Below are positions 7,606 to 57,203 of a stretch of 64,000 nucleotides of DNA, one piece after another. Made by a program: the position numbers and the translations under genes. How positions within the stretch are numbered: position 1 is the stretch's first letter; each line of letters begins with the position of its first letter. The notes beneath the pieces are model-generated. The model was given only the letters and a program-made list of their open reading frames with translations. It did no database searches and was not told where the DNA came from. The DNA comes from an uncultured Candidatus Saccharibacteria bacterium (GTDB lineage: Bacteria; Patescibacteriota; Minisyncoccia; UBA6257; 1-14-0-10-44-23): contig CAYMXN010000001.1 in NCBI GenBank assembly GCA_964394435.1, positions 235,928 to 299,927 on the forward strand. Reading direction: 5' to 3'.

Positions 7606-7634
7606 TTGACATATATATGCTTATATGCTATAAT
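7606..7634 (+). promoter_or_regulatory. Consensus sigma70-type promoter with extended -10
   Basis: TTGACA (7606-7611), 17-nt spacer, TGcTATAAT (-10 at 7629-7634). The spacer contains the direct repeat tatatgc-t-tatatgc. Confidence 0.7.
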
Positions 7635-7749
7635 GTACCTTAGAAAGCTGGTAAGTGGGACGTTCCCCTTGCTTGAGCTTTAGATCTTTGAGAAGAACAA
7701 GTCTGTGCGCTAAGAACGCACATTACGAAAGAAAGGCTCGGTTACTCGA

Positions 7750-8691
7750 ATGACCATGCACCACGTTCGCGCCACGATCTGCTTCGTGTCCCCCGACAAC
7801 CAGTGGGGGTTCGCGGAGGTCGTCGACTCGGAGACGGGCGACAAGAAGACGTGGATGTGCCACCGTCTCGGCCGTCGCGACGCGTTCGCGACGCAGCAGG
7901 GTACGATCACCTACTCCGACGCGAAGATCGCGTTCGGTCCCTTCCCGCAGCACGGCGACGTCGTCGTCGTGCTGGCGGAGAGGGCTCCCCAGGAGGGCAA
8001 GCAGTACCCCCAGGCCGTGTGGACCACGGCCGAGCAGTACGACCCCTTCATCGAGATCGCCGCGGGCAACCGCGCCGCCTTCGCCGAGTACGCTCGTGAG
8101 CAGGAGCGGCTCGCCGCCAAGCGGGCGGAGCTCGAGCAGAAGCTCGCCACCCGGCGGGTGGAGCTCGAGCCCCAGGTCGGGCCGCTGCAGAAGCGGTTCG
8201 CGATCCAGGACCTGTCCCCCATCTTCAACCCCCTGAAGATGACCCGGGTCGTCGTCAAGGAGCTCGGCCGCGAGCAGATGCTCGCGGAGACCGAGGACGG
8301 CGTCAAGGTCGTCCTGCCCCTGAACGTCCAGCACCTCGTGGTGATCAACCCGCGCGGCCCGTCGATCACGGCGGCGCCGGCGGCGACGCCCCGGATGCTG
8401 GCGATCGGCGAGGTCGCGTACGTGCGCAGCGCGTACGTGAGCATCCTCGAGGAGGACGAGGACCTCGTCCTCAAGATCCAGGCGAACGCCTGGATCAGCC
8501 AGCTCCAGGCGGAGCGGGTGGTGATGACGGGCCTCACGAAGGCCCAGAACACCCTCGCCATGAAGGCGGTGGAGGCCGCGGACACCGAGCGTCAGCGGCA
8601 GGAGGCGATCGCGCGGTCGCACATCAAGGGGCCGAAGCTGTCGCCCCCGCCCAAGGGCGGCATGGCGAAGGCGCTCGCTCGCGGGCGCTAG
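7750..8691 (+). CDS. GC-rich hypothetical protein: N-terminal cold-shock/OB-like segment plus coiled coil
   Basis: 313 aa. ATICFVSPDNQWGFAEVVDSETGDKKTWMCH resembles the CSD pattern (GxVxWF..GFGFI...G.D.FVH). Central EQERLAAKRAELEQKLATRRVELE coiled coil. Sampled lines have 42-43/60 G+C. Has its own promoter and terminator. Confidence 0.7.
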   Translation: MTMHHVRATICFVSPDNQWGFAEVVDSETGDKKTWMCHRLGRRDAFATQQGTITYSDAKIAFGPFPQHGDVVVVLAERAPQEGKQYPQAVWTTAEQYDPFIEIAAGNRAAFAEYAREQERLAAKRAELEQKLATRRVELEPQVGPLQKRFAIQDLSPIFNPLKMTRVVVKELGREQMLAETEDGVKVVLPLNVQHLVVINPRGPSITAAPAATPRMLAIGEVAYVRSAYVSILEEDEDLVLKIQANAWISQLQAERVVMTGLTKAQNTLAMKAVEAADTERQRQEAIARSHIKGPKLSPPPKGGMAKALARGR

Positions 8692-8717
8692 CACGCACTA
8701 CCCCATCCTACGGGGTT

Positions 8718-8762
8718 GGCGCGGATGCAGATCGAAAGATCTTGTGTCCGCGCCTTTTTTAT
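8718..8762 (+). terminator. Intrinsic terminator of the GC-rich cassette
   Basis: ggcgcgga...tccgcgcc stem (inner gatc-gaaa-gatc) followed by ttttttt; abuts the stop of the convergent M23 gene. Confidence 0.75.
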
Positions 8763-30618: not shown

Positions 30619-31677
30619 TTATTTTTTAGTTGCGTTTGTGTGCTGGGCGATCATTTCGCGCAATGTGCGCTCGAGGTCGTATTCGTATTTCCAGTCCGGA
30701 TAGTGCTTTTGGAACTTAGATACATCAGAGATATACCAGATGTGGTCACCGCGACGGTTCTGATCAACATATTCATAATCAGCCTTTTTACCGCTAATCT
30801 TTTCAATCATCTCGATCGCCTCAATCATCGAACAGTTACTAAACCGACTGCCGCCCATATTGTATACCTCTCCTTTTCGCGGATTGAGATAGAAGTGATA
30901 GAACGCGTTAATTAAATCGTACGAGTGGATATTGTCGCGAACCTGCTTACCCTTATACCCAAAAATTTTATATTTTTTACCGCTTACTACGCATTTGACG
31001 AGATAGCTCAAGAATCCGTGCAGCTCTACGCCAGCGTGCGACGGACCAGTTAAGCAGCCACCGCGAAAAACCGCCGTCTTAAGTCCAAAATACTTCCCGT
31101 ACTCCTGCACGAGAATGTCTGCCGCAACCTTACTCGCACCAAACAAGCTATGAAGTGAGTCGTCGATACTCATCGTCTCATCAATACCTTTTTGATACGG
31201 GTGCTTCGGATCTATCTCCCAGCGCTTCTCGGTTTCGATAAGCGGAAGCGTATTTGGTTTATCTCCATATACCTTATTTGTCGAGGTAAAAATAAAGACT
31301 GCTTCAGGCGAGTAGAGCCTAAAGTGCTCGAGGATGTTCAGTGTACCGTTTGCGTTAACCGTAAAATCGGTAAGTGGCTCTTTTACAGCCCAGTCGTGCG
31401 ATGGCTGCGCTGCGGTGTGAATAATTAAATCAAACTTATGCTCCTTGAAGAGCTTAGTGAGCTCCTCTTGGTTGCGAATATCAAAATTATAGTGCTTAAA
31501 ATGCTGATGTTTATCTTTGAGTTGTTGATTGCGACTCTTCGTACTCCCATCTGGGCCGAAGAAGTAGCTACGCATATCGTTATCAATACCCACAACCTCA
31601 AAGCCCTTGTCGGCGAAAAAGCTGACGGCTTCTGAACCAATCAGCCCTCCCGAGCCTGTAATTAACACTTTTTTCAT
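30619..31677 (-). CDS. Extended SDR epimerase/dehydratase-like protein (catalytic Tyr position reads Phe)
   Basis: [10 protein letters not shown] Rossmann motif; the expected YxxxK reads FGASK. Confidence 0.7.
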
Positions 31678-43440: not shown

Positions 43441-43500
43441 ATCGCCTATTTTAGACGAAGTGTCAAAAGGTGTCAAAAAGGTTCATGGGGATAATCGGTA

Positions 43501-43539
43501 ATAAAAAGAGCGGACGATGTATCTCTACATTGTCCGCTC
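43501..43539 (-). terminator. Strong intrinsic terminator after the Nudix-like gene
   Basis: gagcggac...gtccgctc long stem followed by tttttatt on the minus strand. A second hairpin lies at 43543-43566. Confidence 0.75.
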
Positions 43540-43570
43540 ATCGCCCGCCTGTTGGCGGACGGGTGCGAAA

Positions 43571-44263
43571 CTAGTGACCGAAGCGGTAACCGTAACCCTG
43601 TGCACGCGCCCGATGGGCCGCCAACATCACCTCTACAAACGTGTGGCTCATGTCGTACGACCACTCTCCCTCGATCGGGAGCGTATCGAGAGAGTACCAC
43701 TCGAGGCCACTCGCCTCGGCCTGGTTGTCTCCGCTCTTCACCCCGAACACGACCTGCTGGTCGTGCGTACCCGCGTACGTCACGATGTGGGTCGAGGCGT
43801 AGCTGTGCTTGCCCGGGTCGTGGGAGAATCCGTTGCGATTACGACCGTCCATCTGAGGCGCGTACTGGCGCATACAGACCGGATGGGCCCAACCGAGCGG
43901 CAGCTCGACGTCGATGCCGAGATCGCTCTTGTAGTGGAACTTCAAGGCGTCCTCGATGGACTGGTAAAGTCCGACCACGCCGCCGACGATGGCGAGCTTG
44001 CCAGGAAAGCGCCCCGTCCGACGACGGATGACACCGCCGAGCAACTGACCCGTCTTCGGGTCCTGCTTGACGATGACGCCGTCGACACAGGGCACGGCAC
44101 CGAGCTTCGTACGCAAGGGCCAGACCGCTCCCGAGACCCGCCCGTCCGGCTGGACGAGCTGATCGAGATCCGAACGCTGGGCGAGGATCTCGGCGAGTTG
44201 CCGAGTGCTGTAGCCCACCAGCCGATCCGCAAGGTCGGCAGTCGAATCAGTCCTTTCGGACAT
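43571..44263 (-). CDS. GC-rich Nudix-fold, DUF4916-like protein (degenerate Nudix box)
   Basis: Trimmed to MSERTDSTADL (GGAGG SD 6 nt upstream). AVPCVDGVIV...GKLAIVGGVVGLYQSIEDALKFHYKSDLGI follows the Nudix strand-loop-helix layout without the full GX5EX7REUXEEXGU box. 42/60 G+C at 43981-44040. Confidence 0.65.
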   Translation of the reverse strand: MSERTDSTADLADRLVGYSTRQLAEILAQRSDLDQLVQPDGRVSGAVWPLRTKLGAVPCVDGVIVKQDPKTGQLLGGVIRRRTGRFPGKLAIVGGVVGLYQSIEDALKFHYKSDLGIDVELPLGWAHPVCMRQYAPQMDGRNRNGFSHDPGKHSYASTHIVTYAGTHDQQVVFGVKSGDNQAEASGLEWYSLDTLPIEGEWSYDMSHTFVEVMLAAHRARAQGYGYRFGH

Positions 44264-44314
44264 CGGAAACCTCCGGGAAATACCCTCCGCAACCGATTGT
44301 TGTGGATTAGATAT

Positions 44315-44343
44315 GTTATAGCATAAAATATGCCCAAAGTCAA
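44315..44343 (-). promoter_or_regulatory. Promoter TTGACT-N17-TGcTATAAC with GCATA-TTT-TATGC palindrome in the spacer
   Basis: Minus strand reads gaTTGACTttggGCATAtttTATGCTATAACatat. Confidence 0.65.
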
Positions 44344-44396
44344 TCACCTGCTGTTGCGCCCACAAATCAAAAGCCCGCCAGCTGGCGGACTTTTGA

Positions 44397-46764: not shown

Positions 46765-49700
46765 CTATTCGTAGCTGACGTTGGCGATGGTGAACGGAAC
46801 AACCGTTGACTCGATCGAGATGTTGCTCGTCGTGCCATCGTTGAACGTGATACCCGAGGCAGCGTTGATAAGCGCTGAGAGGGAGTCAGAGGTGTTGGAA
46901 CCGTTGTAGAAGCTTGAGGAGTTCACACGAACCTTAGCAGCCTTCGTGGTGCCTGGGTCAACTGTGTATGACGGGTTAAACGTCACAGAACAGGAGTTAC
47001 CAGCACCTGGAGTGCAAGTCTGTTGAGCTGCACTGCCGAGAGCTGAGTTGGTGTTGGCGTCAAGAAGGTCAACCGTGAAAGCGGTCGAACCGTTGCTGAC
47101 AGCCTGACCAGAGAACTTGACCGTTACAGTACCAACTACAGCCTGGTAGGCCGAGTCAGCCGTAAAGTTCAAGGTTGCAAGGTCGTCAACCGCTACACGA
47201 GTACGGCCAGTGGATGAACCAAGGACCGCGCTTGAGAGCGAGAGCTTCGTGCGGTAAACCGTGACAGTGTTACCTGAAGCAGAACCAGACTTCGTAGCAG
47301 ACGTGTTCGAGTCCTTACCATACGCCGTAACGAAGTACGTCGGCTGGGAGAGACCGAATGCGTGGGTGCTGTTTGAAGTGGCACCACCAGAGCTGTACGT
47401 CGCAACATCACCCTTTACCACGAGGTTAACCGTACCGTTTTTCGGAACGATAACTGGGTTGAGGCTGAAGGTCGCCGTAGCAACTGAACTGCCAGACATC
47501 GTCATCGAGATAGGACCAGCTACCTGAGTAGAGCCGTTCCAGAGCGTTACGTTCTGGAATGAAGCGATACCAGCTGAACCGTTACCTACCGTGTCGGTGA
47601 GCGAGATGTCGGTTACGCGGATGTCCTCAACGTTGTCCGCGGTAAGGCGGATCGTTAAGAGGGCGTTGCCGGTTGAACCCATTACTACGTACTTAGAAGG
47701 CGCCGTGTCGGAGCCAGTAGCGACCGTAAGGGTTGGACCAGACGAGATTACGATACTCTGACCGTTAACTGCACCTGGGAAGGTAATCGCCGAGTTCGAG
47801 ATCGAACCCAAAGCGCTCCAACCGATGATGTCGATAACTGCAGAGTGAGTCGCAGCCGTCGAGCTGGTCAAGATGTCGGCGTAAACGTCAATCGTTACTG
47901 AACCACCCTGTGGAACAGTGACTGGGGTCGCAGCGCTGAACGCGAGCGAGGTTTCCGCATCACTGATCGTTGGGCGGGTCGTTCCGAACTGAGTCGAACC
48001 GATCATAACCTTCATGTTCTGCATGTCGAAGTTCGCGTTGCTGTCCTTGTCAAAGGTAAGCGACGAAAGGGTCGCACCCTGGGCTGAAGAAGCAGTTACG
48101 ATGAACGAAGCGACACGAGCGTTGTTGCTACCAGCGATAAACGTTGGTGAGTTAAACGCTGAGTTTACAGCAACCGTGAGCGGAGTCGTCGTAACAGCGA
48201 GCGTCGCGCCGGTTACAGAACCGGATGAAGCTGACTGGAACGAGGTCTGACCCTCAAGGTTTGTGCTGTTACCTGGCAAGCTGCCCTGGAGCGTCGTGAC
48301 GTCAGCACCCGAGAGGATGTCAACGACGAGCGAGACTACACGGACAGTGTTGGCCGGAACAATGTAGTTAATTGGGGATCCGGACGTACCGAAGTGGCAA
48401 GTAATCGAGCCGGAAGCGAGCGTACACTGACCGGAGGAAGAACCACCAGCAACAGTGTTGATCGCGTTACCAACCTGACCACCTACGTCATCGATAAGGC
48501 GGATGTTTTGGATGTCGTCCGTCGGAGCAGTAGCCCAGTTAGTACCGGAACCAACCTGCGAGATGGTCGCATCTAAGAACTTAACTTTAACTGCCTCACC
48601 AGCTGCATAAATGCGAGCGCGGAGAAGAGTTACGCCAGAGGCACCTACTGGAATTGGAGCAGTTGGGGTGTCTGAAGCGAGAGATACCGTGATCGAACCG
48701 GTGTTGATCGTAATCGTTGTCTGGTTCGTTGAGGTGATGGAGACCGTGATACCAGTGTTGTACTGGGTGTCGATCGCCGTGACCTTAAACGGCTGGAGCA
48801 ATGAGAACGTCAAAGTGCGGTTAGGGCTGCCGTTGATGTCAGCGAAAAGCTGAATCGTCGAGTTACCCGTGTTGAGCACGATACCCTCTGGGAAGTTGAA
48901 GTTGGTGTTCGTCGCGCCAGCTGCGAGAGTCGCAACCTGCGTGCCGTTAACCAAAAGCCTCAAATTCTGAACATCGCCTGGGTTAGCTGAACCGACCATG
49001 CTGAACTGCATGTTGGTGAGCTTGACCTTGCTGTTAGAAACGTTCGCAGTCCAAGATGAAACGAGGACCGAGGCCGTACCAGCATCAACTGTTGAACCTA
49101 CCGCGTTAGCAGTAAGAGTCATCGTTGAAAGTGATGGGTTGGAAACTGAAGTGACAGTCAAGGAAGCGGTGGAAACTGGAAGACCAGTAACCGTCGCACC
49201 CGTCGCCGTTACACCCTTAAGCTGCCAAGCGAGCGTGTTGCCAGCTGAAGCAGATGAAGAGAGGTCAAGGCGGAGCTCACCAGTCCAAGTCTGACCAGCT
49301 GGGATCATCAAGTTGAGACCCGAGAAGGTTGCGACTGAGTTGGTGAGTGACTGGAACTGAGCAACAACTTCACCGGTCGCCGCGTTGGCGAGGTAAAGGT
49401 TGTTGATGTTGCTGTCAGATACGACACCAACCTTGTTGAATGTAAGGCCAGTAACCGTTACTGCAGCGCCAGCTGGAGCGGTGAAAGCGAAGCGGCCAGC
49501 GTTGATCTGACCAGCTCCGGCGATTGCCGAGCCAATTGGGTTGTTACCAGCGAGGGTAACGTTAAGAGTGGAACCGGCTGGGAGTGAAACGCCCGTGCCA
49601 GTACCAGTGCCAGTGTTCACAGAGCCAGTGAAGGCTGCGCGAGACTTTGCACCGAAGTAACCAGAAGCTGGGGTGATGCCAGCAGAAGTCTGCCAGGCCA

Positions 49701-50034
49701 TAACCGCCGCCTTGGTGATGCTACCGAAGTAGCCCGTTGGGGAAACACTGAAGTGACCCTTTGACGCAAGAACCTGCTGGAGGCAAGTAACATCAGCGCC
49801 CTTTGAGCCCACGGTGAGGTCGCGGGTGAAGGAACATGCTGAGTTGCCGCCAGTCGAGTTGTTGAGCTGGGACTGCAGGTTAGCCAACGTTGCGAGCAAC
49901 GCGTTGATCTGAGTCTGGATGTCTGAAGCTGATTGCGCACCGGCAACCGCTACAAATGAACCAAAACCAGAGAGCGTAGCCGCAGTGGTTACCGTCAGGA
50001 TTACTGAGGCAACCTTGTTGCTAAATTTACTCAT
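46765..50034 (-). CDS. Large cell-surface protein: signal/anchor, PG_binding_1-like domain, long Thr/Ser/Ala/Gly/Val-rich beta-repeat region
   Basis: 1089 aa. LTVGSKGADVTCLQQVLASKGHFSVSPTGYFGSITKAAVMAWQ is a peptidoglycan-binding repeat, followed by a TGTGTGTG linker and repetitive T/S-rich segments. Confidence 0.8.
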   Translation of the reverse strand: MSKFSNKVASVILTVTTAATLSGFGSFVAVAGAQSASDIQTQINALLATLANLQSQLNNSTGGNSACSFTRDLTVGSKGADVTCLQQVLASKGHFSVSPTGYFGSITKAAVMAWQTSAGITPASGYFGAKSRAAFTGSVNTGTGTGTGVSLPAGSTLNVTLAGNNPIGSAIAGAGQINAGRFAFTAPAGAAVTVTGLTFNKVGVVSDSNINNLYLANAATGEVVAQFQSLTNSVATFSGLNLMIPAGQTWTGELRLDLSSSASAGNTLAWQLKGVTATGATVTGLPVSTASLTVTSVSNPSLSTMTLTANAVGSTVDAGTASVLVSSWTANVSNSKVKLTNMQFSMVGSANPGDVQNLRLLVNGTQVATLAAGATNTNFNFPEGIVLNTGNSTIQLFADINGSPNRTLTFSLLQPFKVTAIDTQYNTGITVSITSTNQTTITINTGSITVSLASDTPTAPIPVGASGVTLLRARIYAAGEAVKVKFLDATISQVGSGTNWATAPTDDIQNIRLIDDVGGQVGNAINTVAGGSSSGQCTLASGSITCHFGTSGSPINYIVPANTVRVVSLVVDILSGADVTTLQGSLPGNSTNLEGQTSFQSASSGSVTGATLAVTTTPLTVAVNSAFNSPTFIAGSNNARVASFIVTASSAQGATLSSLTFDKDSNANFDMQNMKVMIGSTQFGTTRPTISDAETSLAFSAATPVTVPQGGSVTIDVYADILTSSTAATHSAVIDIIGWSALGSISNSAITFPGAVNGQSIVISSGPTLTVATGSDTAPSKYVVMGSTGNALLTIRLTADNVEDIRVTDISLTDTVGNGSAGIASFQNVTLWNGSTQVAGPISMTMSGSSVATATFSLNPVIVPKNGTVNLVVKGDVATYSSGGATSNSTHAFGLSQPTYFVTAYGKDSNTSATKSGSASGNTVTVYRTKLSLSSAVLGSSTGRTRVAVDDLATLNFTADSAYQAVVGTVTVKFSGQAVSNGSTAFTVDLLDANTNSALGSAAQQTCTPGAGNSCSVTFNPSYTVDPGTTKAAKVRVNSSSFYNGSNTSDSLSALINAASGITFNDGTTSNISIESTVVPFTIANVSYE

Positions 50035-56142: not shown

Positions 56143-56976
56143 CTACGAGGCGAGACCCTTCTTCACCGCGGCGAGGACCACCTCGCCGTCGATTCCGCTG
56201 GCACCCCAGTAGGCGGGCTGTCCCGCCTTGCCGAGGCCTGCGCCACCCGACCAGCCACCCAAGTGCTCCTTCAAGCTGGCACAGAGCGCGCCGTCCCCGT
56301 AGAAGTTCACCTCCCCGTCCTTCGAGAGGATGAGGAGCTGGTCGACGGCCCCGTAGAGGCGGTCAGCGACCGCTGAGGTCTTCGAGTGGTCCATGCGGAC
56401 CACCGTCAGACGTCCGTCCACCTCCTTCGCGCCGATGGCGCGGAGGGCCTCTGTCTCGTGCGCGGGGGTCACCCCCTGCGCCGCACGGTCTAGCGCACGA
56501 ATGCGCTCGACCTCGGCGTCAGATGCCCCGAGCGCCCGCATCGCAGGGACGTACCCCGCGTCGTTGGCACCTACGAGCTCGATCCAGCGACGAGTCTGCT
56601 CGCTGGTCGGCATCTTAATCAGTGCCAAAACCTGCTGCACCGCCGGGGGACGGTGCGACTGGTCGCCGTGATGGTCGACGACCACCACCTCAGTCTGCTC
56701 CGGCCACTCCTTGGTCGGCGAGCACTCGACGAAGATGACGCATTCGATGCCGGCACACCGCGTCGACTTACGGTTGTGCTGCCAGAAGTCTGGTCCGGTC
56801 TGGACCAGGATCTCCTCGACCGTGAGGCCAAGGTCGCCTGCGGCGGCGTAGACATGCGACCCCCAGCCCTTGTTGGGCTGGACCCACTTCTCACCCGCGA
56901 GGGTGAGGAGAGAGCGAACGACCTCCATTTCGAGGTCGTTCCCGCCGAGTACGAACAAACGGTTGGCCTTACCCAT
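56143..56976 (-). CDS. GC-rich DHH-family-like phosphoesterase (divergent motifs)
   Basis: Trimmed to MGKANRLFVLGGNDLEME (GGAG SD). Motif spacing fits DHH proteins: NDLE at residues ~13-16 (DxD-like), VECS at ~83-86, VVVVDHHGD at 97-105, C-terminal GGWSGGAG (GGGH-like). 45/60 G+C at 56461-56520. Confidence 0.6.
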   Translation of the reverse strand: MGKANRLFVLGGNDLEMEVVRSLLTLAGEKWVQPNKGWGSHVYAAAGDLGLTVEEILVQTGPDFWQHNRKSTRCAGIECVIFVECSPTKEWPEQTEVVVVDHHGDQSHRPPAVQQVLALIKMPTSEQTRRWIELVGANDAGYVPAMRALGASDAEVERIRALDRAAQGVTPAHETEALRAIGAKEVDGRLTVVRMDHSKTSAVADRLYGAVDQLLILSKDGEVNFYGDGALCASLKEHLGGWSGGAGLGKAGQPAYWGASGIDGEVVLAAVKKGLAS

Positions 56977-57174
56977 CGAAATCTCCAGTTGGTCCGGAAG
57001 GACCGTGAATCCACTTCGGGCGTTTCCGCTCAGGTAGGACGACACCTCTGGATAAGCACTTTATTTTACAACCCGGCTTGGAAGGTTGTCCGCTCTGCGA
57101 GCAGCGTTTTAGGCGCAAATACGCTCAAAACACTGCTCACGAACGGTCTATTTCAATGAACGACTTAGATATTT

Positions 57175-57203
57175 AATATAGCATATTTTTATGCTTTTGT
57201 CAA
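57175..57203 (-). promoter_or_regulatory. Promoter TTGACA-N17-TGcTATATT with GCATA-AAAA-TATGC palindrome in the spacer
   Basis: Minus strand reads gaTTGACAaaaGCATAaaaaTATGCTATATTaaat. Leaves a leader of about 190 nt before the DHH-like ATG. Confidence 0.65.

Follow-up and report, generated by a model that had tools for sequence, protein, structure and literature searches.

NUDL, a rare Nudix-fold family predicted to be sister to DUF4916, in a surface-glycan locus of a Patescibacteria genome

The 64,000-nucleotide stretch of DNA analysed here (the window) encodes a 230-residue protein which, judged by its profile relationships, belongs to a small and rare family sister to Pfam DUF4916; NUDL is the name given here to this gene and its family. 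Within the Nudix clan, NUDL forms a rare branch, so far uncharacterised, that is marked by its own degenerate box and by a conserved partner enzyme of the short-chain dehydrogenase/reductase (SDR) type. The gene lies in a glycan locus (about 24.9-46.6 kb of the window), is old, constrained and fixed, and is a candidate for the control of nucleotide-activated sugars. The setting is that of candidate-phyla-radiation bacteria, of whose surface chemistry little is known. The features discussed below are listed in Table 1.

Table 1. Coordinates of NUDL, its signals, its neighbours and related features in the window
Feature	Position	Strand	Details
NUDL gene	43571..44263	-	ATG start, TAG stop, 230 aa (ORF and translation)
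NUDL 5' UTR	44264..44314	-	GGAGG RBS at 44270-44274, 6 nt before ATG
NUDL promoter	44315..44343	-	TTGACT (44343-44338), 17-nt spacer, TATAAC (44320-44315), extended -10 TGC
Spacer palindrome GCATA-AAA-TATGC	44321-44333	-	inside NUDL promoter
First NUDL terminator hairpin	43543..43560	-	GCCCGCC-NNNN-GGCGGAC; copy 2 of the 18-nt direct repeat
Second NUDL terminator hairpin	43500..43539 (arms 43508-43539)	-	14-nt arms, then UUUUUAUU
Hairpin of the bidirectional terminator of the Wzy_C/TPR gene	44373..44390	-	copy 1 of the 18-nt direct repeat
Wzy_C + TPR membrane protein, 744 aa	44397..46631	-	upstream neighbour; 2e-21
HTH_17/excisionase-family DNA-binding protein, 81 aa	43195..43440	-	3.6e-10; TIGR01764 32.9 bits (cut-off 28.8)
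HTH promoter	43448..43479	-	TTGACA-17-TAAAAT, 11/12 consensus positions; overlaps tandem TTTTGACAC repeat
Tandem repeat TTTTGACAC-C-TTTTGACAC	43460-43479	-	10-nt period
CDP-tyvelose-2-epimerase-like SDR, 352 aa	30619..31677	-	64% identity to the NUDL-paired SDR of three other genomes
Single-gene high-GC islands	7750-8691, 43571-44263 (NUDL), 56143-56976		GC3 0.8-0.97

Identification of the NUDL gene

The NUDL ORF is a real gene and is subject to purifying selection, as the window protein and its orthologue in a diverged relative (L021) share 81% amino-acid identity with a dN/dS of 0.25. On the opposite strand, a 269-aa ORF (43517..44326) is the entry in the gene calls of the long public contigs L004/L009 and of L021, so that the Nudix-like frame might be taken for its shadow. 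This reading has next to no probability, since the antisense frame matches no family and has a G+C content by codon position of 0.75/0.46/0.64, while the sense frame (0.66/0.44/0.80) has homologues, a confident fold and purifying selection, with the RBS, promoter and terminator all correctly oriented. For two of the GC-rich genes in the window, the public long-contig gene calls give an ORF on the opposite strand or in a wrong frame, so that databases under-count such genes. The homologues of the window protein form only 22 clusters among 5.8 billion proteins, while 227 cluster representatives are found at E <= 1e-3 to NUDL.

Fold, family assignment and the degenerate Nudix box

The AlphaFold model of the window protein (pLDDT 91.8) has the alpha/beta/alpha Nudix (beta-grasp) fold, in which the box is carried on a loop-helix-loop, with a long C-terminal helix at its end. 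The region GKLAIVGGVVGLYQSIEDALKFHYKSDLGI (residues 88-117) comprises a strand (93-96), a loop and a helix (103-115) in the model, in agreement with the strand-loop-helix layout proposed from the sequence by the first-pass annotation. The best structural match of the model is 4ktb, which is the closest solved structure and profile relative, matched by the NUDL family profile at 7e-06. The single-sequence search of the PDB with the window protein returned only noise plus 4ktb at E 0.14, and the family profile was needed. Direct scans of NUDL against Pfam, NCBIfam, PADLOC and PHROGs gave nothing usable, the sole match being NudI (E 0.013), and no DNA-binding or partner domain was detected in the profile scans.

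As for the assignment to DUF4916 (PF16262, gathering threshold 27 bits), 13 of the 15 NUDL family members match this profile. Among ten relatives tested, the threshold is passed by P0004 (28.6 bits) and P0009 (37.8), while the L021 copy (17.2), P0167 (18.4), P0163 (21.9), P0006 (23.4), P0003 (24.9), P0010 and P0169 (25.8 each) and P0011 (26.4) lie under it. The window protein itself has no PF16262 match, and no match to the general NUDIX profile (PF00293, 21.1 bits) at E <= 10; for the latter the relatives score 15.6-32.7 bits (L021 16.3), where only P0163 (23.3), P0167 (21.3) and P0169 (32.7) pass. The earlier description of the gene as DUF4916-like is therefore right in that DUF4916 proteins are its nearest described relatives, but the window protein is below both thresholds.

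The NUDL family contains the box G-x5-E-x7-R-H-hydrophobic-x-(T/S)-D-x-G-U, compared with the canonical G-x5-E-x7-R-E-U-x-E-E-x-G-U, and the window protein reads G95-x5-Q101-x7-F109-H110-Y-K-S113-D114-L-G-I. The box alignment agrees with the first reading of the sequence that the catalytic REUXEE glutamates are missing. Position 101 is glutamate in 46/53 close and 57/61 distant relatives, and position 109 is arginine in 47/53 and 56/61, respectively, against Q101 and F109 in the window; H110 and D114 are present in 51 and 50 of the 53 close sequences. Twelve polar positions (D61, R81, E101, R109, H110, Q133, Y134, D149, K152, H153, E183 and W189) are conserved across the 53 close and 61 distant relatives, a pattern that speaks for the retention of an active or ligand site, and the window protein retains H110, D114, D149, K152, H153 and E183. 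The family-specific invariant motifs are QYAP (MRQYAPQ), DPGKHSYASTH, GGQEA and EWSYDM.

Transcription unit and neighbouring genes

NUDL is predicted to be an autonomous transcription unit between the Wzy_C/TPR gene and an operon led by the HTH gene. The 230-aa ORF with GGAGG, its own promoter and a double-hairpin terminator had all been reported by the first-pass annotation, and all were found, as judged from sequence, fold energy and conservation in L021. The promoter was missed by a consensus scanner because the final base of the -10 box is C. The alignment with L021 shows that both promoter elements (-35 box and -10 region) are kept along with the RBS and the 5' UTR, while both arms of the spacer palindrome have changed together in L021 (TCATA..TATGA); GCATA..TATGC occurs twice in the window, where 0.2 occurrences are expected. 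A block of about 35 nt in the 5' UTR is nearly invariant between the window and L021, whereas the coding DNA differs by about 17%, and no significant RNA structure is detected in the 5' UTR (fold z -0.5).

The double-hairpin terminator has a fold energy of -36.7 kcal/mol (z = -5.7). Its first hairpin is without a U-run of its own and is kept in L021, while the second hairpin with the following UUUUUAUU is predicted to be the functional intrinsic terminator of NUDL; its arms differ in sequence between the window and L021, and the pairing is retained. The hairpin of the Wzy_C/TPR terminator is also kept in L021. The NUDL unit is bracketed by an 18-nt direct repeat, whose two copies are 16/18 identical and 830 nt apart.

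The neighbours are those named in the first-pass annotation, as identified by profile matches: the Wzy_C/TPR gene on one side and the excisionase-family HTH gene on the other. A similar Wzy_C + TPR fusion adjoins NUDL in L020. The HTH gene leads the downstream glycan operon, has a host-like GC3 (0.45) and shares 96% amino-acid identity with its L021 counterpart; one base differs over about 65 nt of its promoter region. The tandem direct repeat described earlier for this promoter was found. The end of the -10 box lies 7 nt from the ATG, a layout that makes a leaderless mRNA plausible, as had been suggested. An integrative element consisting of an excisionase and a cargo gene was considered and rejected, as the HTH gene is host-like in composition and is retained together with its operon, and integrase, tRNA and element ends are all lacking. 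Scans of the window found no integrase or tRNA next to NUDL, where the flanking 18-nt hairpin repeat is the lone candidate mobility signature, and Rfam gave three tRNAs and nothing else over the window.

Glycan loci and the SDR partner

Glycan loci surround NUDL in five of seven independent contexts (a raw count, from a sample of only about eight contexts). In L006, L020 and L022/23, NUDL is arranged back-to-back (divergently) with an SDR of 352-354 aa, and these SDRs are 74-78% identical to one another. The window orthologue of this SDR lies 12 kb from NUDL within the same locus. In L016-19, an epimerase flanks NUDL on one side and glycosyltransferases on the other, while L022 further has gmd, a GT11 glycosyltransferase and a cytidylyltransferase-like gene. 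L001 and L002 carry NUDL outside glycan loci, with no SDR partner within 10 kb. The closest solved relatives of the SDR are 9rl0 (8.6e-43) and 1orr (2.2e-39), which are CDP-tyvelose/CDP-glucose 2-epimerases (PMC13098431), compared with 1e-22 for GalE and RmlB. The SDR was also considered as a GDP-mannose 4,6-dehydratase, as in a gmd-gmm arrangement, and this was rejected, since it reaches none of the NCBIfam cut-offs and the 2-epimerases are its best PDB matches.

Base composition and age

The NUDL gene has a G+C content of 63.5% between flanks of 0.41-0.46, reaching 0.66 in a 300-nt window and 0.70-0.73 in 30-nt windows, in line with the value of about 70% first noted in a sampled line. Its GC3 is 0.80, compared with 0.43-0.47 in the adjacent genes and a mean of 0.50 (sd 0.10) in the other 50 ORFs of the window, of which just two more exceed 0.8. 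Codon choice is unlike that of the host throughout (e.g. the proline codon CCA has a share of 0.47 in host genes and 0.00 in NUDL). The L021 orthologue has a GC3 of 0.88, and across genomic contexts the value ranges from 0.46 to 0.88, usually higher than in the neighbours. From this composition (GC3 0.80) we infer that a GC-rich donor is demanded.

The first-pass annotation had raised the absence of the gene from relatives at this position, and this was not borne out. All ten strain-level contigs sharing the flanks carry NUDL, 100% identical across the gene, and the diverged relative L021 has it at the same site, where the flanking Wzy gene has a dS of 1.09; an empty site was sought and not found among these eleven. 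NUDL thus predates a split with a flank dS of about 1.1, and its insertion is not recent. Between the window and L021, NUDL has a dN/dS exceeding that of its neighbours by a factor of 5-15. NUDL is hence a case in which a strong compositional anomaly need not imply recent transfer.

The single-gene islands, of which there are at least three, share a further regularity. The pattern TTGAC-N14-ATGCTATA occurs three times in 64 kb (0.06 expected), each time preceding a high-GC island, and the spacer palindrome GCATA-N3-4-TATGC is found in two of the three. The same islands occupy the same sites in relatives whose flanks are saturated at synonymous sites. On a reading that is conceivable, although rather doubtful, passive drift should have erased the high GC3 and something active would therefore be at work. 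The islands would then be a co-regulated foreign gene set whose G+C is kept either by a gene-specific process maintaining high GC or by a GC-rich partner organism, from which alleles would be imported again and again into fixed landing sites equipped with promoters. A promoter common to three GC3-extreme genes is a regularity worth a genome-wide look.

Distribution and origin

DUF4916 is distributed in actinobacteria, and NUDL had accordingly been attributed to an actinobacterial source. GroEL places the window organism in Parcubacteria-like Patescibacteria, and all close NUDL homologues with known taxonomy are from Patescibacteria, namely a Saccharibacteria MAG and Microgenomates OLB22 (48-60% identity), whose copies have a host-like GC3 of 0.43-0.46. 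The attribution is therefore not upheld, and by the refuting condition of the first-pass annotation (nearest homologues in the same low-GC lineage) the donor claim largely fails as well. A Saccharibacteria host with actinobacterial DNA acquired from its own host cell was also considered and dropped, as GroEL is Parcubacteria-like.

A recent transfer from a high-GC Gram-positive donor (Actinobacteria), with NUDL as a true DUF4916 protein, is very improbable. A GC3 of 0.80-0.88 in a genome of about 0.47, with foreign codon usage, would fit such a transfer, as would the origin of 4ktb, the best solved relative, from the actinobacterium Jonesia, and the GC3 range of 0.46-0.88 could represent successive stages of drift from a GC-rich source. 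However, no close actinobacterial homologue was found: the nearest cluster representatives, about 90 in number, resemble mid- or low-GC organisms in amino-acid composition, and relatives with a high-GC make-up come in only as distant matches (E about 1e-12 to 1e-6), lack the N-terminal extension and are presumably the true actinobacterial DUF4916. Among 185,579 species genomes scanned for the motif, NUDL was located at only two loci, both in Patescibacteria, none was found in phages, plasmids or viral contigs, and a scan of JGI metagenomes gave nothing beyond the known L022 contig. The neighbour-joining tree places the window protein within the Patescibacteria-associated clade, beside the Saccharibacteria copy; its score under the PF16262 threshold and the age of the insertion also count against a recent actinobacterial source.

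Proposed function and alternatives

NUDL is a cytoplasmic Nudix-fold protein with the Nudix loop-helix-loop kept. By analogy with Gmm/NudD, it is proposed with moderate confidence to bind a nucleotide-activated sugar made by the locus and probably to hydrolyse it, so as to control the precursor pool. This role is put forward because the same two box glutamates are lost as in Gmm/NudD and because NUDL occurs in surface-glycan loci with an SDR. As the window lineage has Q101 and F109 for the family E101 and R109, the window allele may be slower or binding-only. A literature search returned nothing on DUF4916, on 4KTB as a Nudix protein, or on a tyvelose 2-epimerase with a Nudix protein, and nucleotide-sugar control in surface-glycan synthesis would be the first testable functional hypothesis for DUF4916-type proteins. 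The context of L001/L002, the loss of E101 and R109 and the raised dN/dS are observations that count against a role on nucleotide sugars.

It is less probable, although still to be taken seriously, that the protein of the window lineage is a pseudo-enzyme, namely a non-catalytic Nudix-fold ligand sensor or adaptor that would bind a nucleotide derivative and act through protein contacts like NrtR and DBC1-type domains. Non-enzymatic Nudix proteins are documented (PMC5389931), Q101 and F109 replace a glutamate and an arginine which are near-invariant in the superfamily, both replacements are also present in L021 and hence fixed, and dN/dS is relaxed compared with the neighbours. However, the six retained polar residues are intact, and the DNA-binding or partner domain of such an adaptor was not detected. 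Moreover, the Gx5E glutamate of Nudix proteins is thought to stabilise the motif and not to catalyse (PMC5389931), and thus the joint loss of E and R may be a compensated structural swap. Unlikelier still is a general nucleotide-housecleaning or dinucleoside-polyphosphate hydrolase with no particular tie to glycan synthesis, whose position in a glycan locus is an accident of insertion. The deposit title of 4ktb (possible Ap4A hydrolase), the copies of L001 and L002 and the separately transcribed, compositionally foreign unit of the window would agree with it, but the recurrence of glycan loci around NUDL, the same divergent SDR partner conserved in three contexts and the lack of the canonical metal-binding glutamates of such hydrolases speak against it.

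Comparison with known systems

DUF4916 proteins (PF16262; 4ktb of Jonesia denitrificans) share with NUDL the Nudix fold, the replacement of the RE glutamate by histidine and the residues D61, R81, Q133-Y134, D149, K152-H153, E183 and W189. The box of 4ktb is R-H-x-x-x-D-L-G and that of the NUDL family R-H-x-x-T/S-D-L-G, while the window allele (F-H-Y-K-S-D-L-G) has lost the arginine. NUDL proteins have 200-236 aa compared with 165-190 aa in distant DUF4916-like proteins, the surplus being about 35-45 N-terminal residues; they differ further in having DPGKHSYASTH, MRQYAPQ and EWSYDM as motifs of their own, and in occurring in low- or middle-GC Patescibacteria-type genomes, unlike the actinobacterial DUF4916. 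Canonical Nudix hydrolases (PF00293) share the fold, the position of the strand-loop-helix box, G94-G95 and the final G-U, but three of the four box glutamates and the arginine are absent from the window protein.

Phage morons and single-gene islets resemble NUDL as one-gene units with their own promoter and terminator and a deviant G+C content, lying between host units. NUDL differs from them in three ways: it resides on the chromosome of a cellular Patescibacteria organism, where neither a phage nor an integrase or tRNA is close by; it keeps its site in a lineage whose synonymous divergence is saturated; and its promoter is common to two other islands.

Gmm/NudD (WcaH; 1RYA, 2I8T) is, like NUDL, a Nudix-fold protein encoded in a surface-polysaccharide cluster beside SDR enzymes modifying NDP-sugars. 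Its box is GX5EX7RLX2AEXGU, where the same two glutamates are replaced (PMC5389931). In RLx2AE of Gmm/NudD and RHx2(T/S)D of NUDL the last acidic residue is kept, whereas the replacements are leucine and alanine in the former and histidine and threonine/serine in the latter. No specific sequence or structure similarity was found between NUDL and Gmm/NudD (1RYA/2I8T), and the partner is a CDP-tyvelose-2-epimerase-like SDR in the case of NUDL but gmd/fcl in that of Gmm/NudD.

Gene structure and protein family

The gene of the 230-aa Nudix-fold, DUF4916-like protein (NUDL) is preceded by GGAGG six bases 5' of its ATG and has a G+C content of 63.5% (maximum 0.66 in 300-nt windows), while both flanks lie at 0.41–0.46. 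Codon positions 1, 2 and 3 have GC of 0.66, 0.44 and 0.80, the last compared with a mean of 0.50 for the 50 remaining ORFs in the window and 0.43–0.47 for the adjoining genes, and the foreign codon choice extends along the whole gene. These features confirm the GC-rich Nudix-like gene of the first-pass annotation. The antisense ORF opposite NUDL was rejected as a real gene, as its codon-position GC is wrong (0.75/0.46/0.64) and it matches no family.

Table. Coordinates of features in the window and in related loci (L004, L020, L021 and L024).
Feature	Position	Strand	Description
NUDL ORF	43571–44263	−	693 nt, 230 aa, ATG to TAG
NUDL promoter	44343–44315	−	TTGACT-17-TATAAC, extended −10 TGC
Hairpin repeat, NUDL side	43543–43560		3' of NUDL
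Hairpin repeat, Wzy side	44373–44390		Wzy_C/TPR terminator
Conserved stretch 5' of HTH gene	43441–43505; L021 3200–3267		~65 nt
Antisense ORF	43517–44326	+	269 aa, stored call opposite NUDL
Other antisense/wrong-frame calls	L004 8306–9115; L021 2378–3148; L024 14824–15948		stored calls
Island 1 ORF	7750–8691 (within 7606–8757)	+	313 aa, GC 0.695, GC3 0.97
Island 1 in L024	14797–15838		same site
Island 3 ORF	56143–56976 (within 56143–57203)	−	277 aa (MGKANRLFVLGG...), GC3 0.83, DHH-like hydrolase
TTGAC-N14-ATGCTATA	7606–7632	+	island 1
TTGAC-N14-ATGCTATA	44317–44343	−	NUDL
TTGAC-N14-ATGCTATA	57177–57203	−	island 3
SDR orthologue	30619–31677	−	64% identity to NUDL-partner SDRs
PG_binding_1 protein gene	46765–50034		1089 aa
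L021 genes after HTH	L021 3520–5772		differ from window
L020 high-GC3 block	L020 1–6714		five genes

In long public contigs, the stored calls for two GC-rich genes (NUDL and the island 1 gene) are antisense or wrong-frame ORFs, including a wrong-frame call for island 1 in L024. The true NUDL product is recorded solely from one 915-bp contig; as the true products of both genes are recorded only from short contigs, the apparent rarity of these families is overstated.

The window protein alone matches no Pfam family. A database search of 5.8 billion proteins gave 15, then 22 NUDL clusters (at 90% identity), which are 48–60% identical to the window protein, and an exhaustive HMM search that covered 1.84 billion cluster representatives yielded 227 with E ≤ 1e-3. 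Weak matches to PF16262 (DUF4916) occur in 13 of the 15 members and to PF00293 in 11; with DUF4916 scores of 17 to 38 bits against a 27-bit threshold the family straddles that threshold, and the window protein falls under it. The earlier assignment to the Nudix fold and DUF4916 family holds at a distance. The degenerate Nudix box has the family consensus G-x5-E-x7-R-H-hydrophobic-x-(T/S)-D-x-G-U (G-x5-Q-x7-F-H-Y-K-S-D-L-G-I in the window allele), where Q101 and F109 of the window clade are rare exceptions shared with the diverged orthologue in L021. The polar residues conserved among 53 close and 61 distant relatives (D61, R81, E101, R109, H110, Q133, Y134, D149, K152, H153, E183 and W189) argue that a ligand or active site unlike the canonical one has been preserved. 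Among Nudix/DUF4916 proteins, NUDL is a rare variant and a new one.

Expression signals and flanking repeat

A 51-nt leader separates the NUDL promoter from the gene, and two hairpins lie 3' of it, the second followed by UUUUUAUU; their joint fold has −36.7 kcal/mol (z = −5.7). The first matches the terminator hairpin of the upstream Wzy_C/TPR gene at 16 of 18 nt (GCCCGCC-NNNN-GGCGGAC), so that an 18-nt direct repeat, its copies 830 nt apart, brackets the NUDL promoter-plus-gene unit. The repeat is kept in L021 and may be a scar of NUDL insertion in the Wzy terminator.

The gene after NUDL encodes an 81-aa HTH_17/excisionase-family protein, whose promoter (TTGACA-17-TAAAAT) overlaps a tandem TTTTGACAC repeat, with 7 nt left before the ATG; the transcript is plausibly leaderless. 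Between the window and L021, the ~65 nt preceding this gene differ by one base, against ~17% for coding DNA, and take in both TTTTGACAC copies, the −10 box and the 7 nt between that box and the ATG, a pattern that suggests an autoregulatory operator and a leaderless start.

Age and origin

The NUDL gene of the window recurs without a single difference in ten contigs from independent runs, thus no empty site was found. L021 carries NUDL at the same place, with the Wzy protein 92% identical and a flank dS of 1.09–1.65, which contradicts the recency implied by the first-pass annotation; its NUDL has a GC3 of 0.88 and is 81% identical to the window protein at a dN/dS of 0.25, and the NUDL promoter, leader, ribosome-binding site, both hairpins and the HTH promoter are kept. 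NUDL is therefore resident, functional and old. Given that synonymous divergence, a simple two-state model that we calculated, in which composition drifts toward that of the host, predicts GC3 of ~0.65 even from a start at 1.0, and the retained 0.80–0.88 exceeds this passive decay.

The composition requires a GC-rich donor. The first-pass annotation pointed to an actinobacterial one, which is not supported. GroEL places the window in Parcubacteria-like Patescibacteria (73–77% identity to Liptonbacteria, Harrisonbacteria, Jorgensenbacteria and Wolfebacteria; 70% to Colwellbacteria), and a motif scan of 185,579 species, one genome each, found the family in only two loci, a Saccharibacteria MAG and Microgenomates OLB22, with host-like GC3 (0.43–0.46). 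The nearest ~90 representatives have an amino-acid composition typical of low- or mid-GC organisms (Gly+Ala+Arg+Pro to Phe+Tyr+Met+Ile+Asn+Lys ratio of 0.6–2.4); high-GC-type sequences (ratio 2.5–6, 165–190 aa, without the N-terminal extension), presumably actinobacterial DUF4916 proper, are found only among matches with E from 1e-12 to 1e-6. A neighbour-joining tree puts the window clade within a Patescibacteria-associated group beside the Saccharibacteria copy, and GC3-rich copies are dispersed over the tree. No NUDL was found in phages, plasmids or viral contigs.

Other high-GC islands

Besides NUDL, two further genes of the window form single-gene islands with extreme GC3 (islands 1 and 3 in the Table). 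The 64 kb contain exactly three copies of TTGAC-N14-ATGCTATA (0.06 expected), each just 5' of one of these three high-GC islands and on the correct strand. The island 1 protein finds no match in Pfam, PADLOC, PHROGs or phages; the promoter of its gene is perfect (TTGACA-17-TATAAT with TGC), and a hairpin terminator of its own follows the gene. In GCA_964602135.1 (L024) it has the same promoter and GC3 (0.97), with 48% amino-acid identity, dN/dS of ~1.1 and saturated flanks (dS 1.4–1.9). The island 3 protein matches PADLOC C3a116 (7.6e-47) and DHH_CorA (4.6e-31), with weak likeness to a region of Arcobacter plasmids that carries a CorA family transporter annotation; its leader is ~200 nt, and its ribosome-binding site plus spacer, GGAGATTTCGATG, is much like that of NUDL, GGAGGTTTCCGATG. 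The window has just two copies of the spacer palindrome GCATA-N3-4-TATGC (0.2 expected), one in the NUDL promoter and one in that of the DHH-like gene, and both promoters are followed by ATATCTAA; in L021 both arms of the NUDL palindrome are altered together (TCATA..TATGA).

The 1089-aa Thr/Ser/Ala/Gly-rich protein with an N-terminal PG_binding_1 domain has a gene of raised GC (0.54) and positive GC skew, which is compositional bias and not an island; an L001 protein has similar architecture.

Glycan-locus context and proposed role

In three independent genomes (L006, L020, L022/23) NUDL divergently adjoins a 352–354-aa short-chain dehydrogenase/reductase (SDR), 74–78% identical among themselves, whose window orthologue lies in the same 22-kb glycan locus as NUDL, together with a Bac_transf initiating sugar transferase, glycosyltransferases, two flippases, a DegT-family aminotransferase, methyltransferases and Wzy_C. 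The nearest solved relatives of the SDR are CDP-tyvelose and CDP-glucose 2-epimerases (8.6e-43 and 2.2e-39; PMC13098431), with GalE and RmlB at 1e-22. L016–19 have an epimerase on one side of NUDL and glycosyltransferases on the other, L022 further holds gmd, a GT11 glycosyltransferase and a cytidylyltransferase-like gene, and two contexts (L001, L002) lie outside glycan loci. NUDL GC3 (0.46 to 0.88) is at least that of its neighbours in all contexts.

After the conserved HTH gene, L021 encodes a NUDIX protein of 157 aa whose box (RIAKRELG) resembles that of Gmm, followed in this list by an RmlB-like dehydratase and a nucleotidyltransferase; as these differ from the window genes, the downstream glycan operon is a variable cassette and Wzy-NUDL-HTH its constant flank. 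In L020, a partial ORF, Wzy_C/TPR, the CDP-tyvelose-2-epimerase-like SDR, NUDL and a flippase form a block of GC3 0.70–0.82, broken by a 73-aa ORF at 0.45 and adjoined by genes at 0.46–0.57; hence a glycan module of several genes may carry NUDL along.

The SDR pairing, the glycan loci and the likeness of the box to that of Gmm/NudD together suggest that NUDL would bind, and probably hydrolyse, a nucleotide-sugar of the pathway, and a role in glycan-precursor control is plausible. NUDL is structurally no nearer to Gmm than to other Nudix proteins. The Gmm/NudD GDP-sugar glycosyl hydrolases have the same two box glutamates replaced (GX5EX7RLX2AEXGU; PMC5389931) and, like NUDL, are encoded in polysaccharide clusters.
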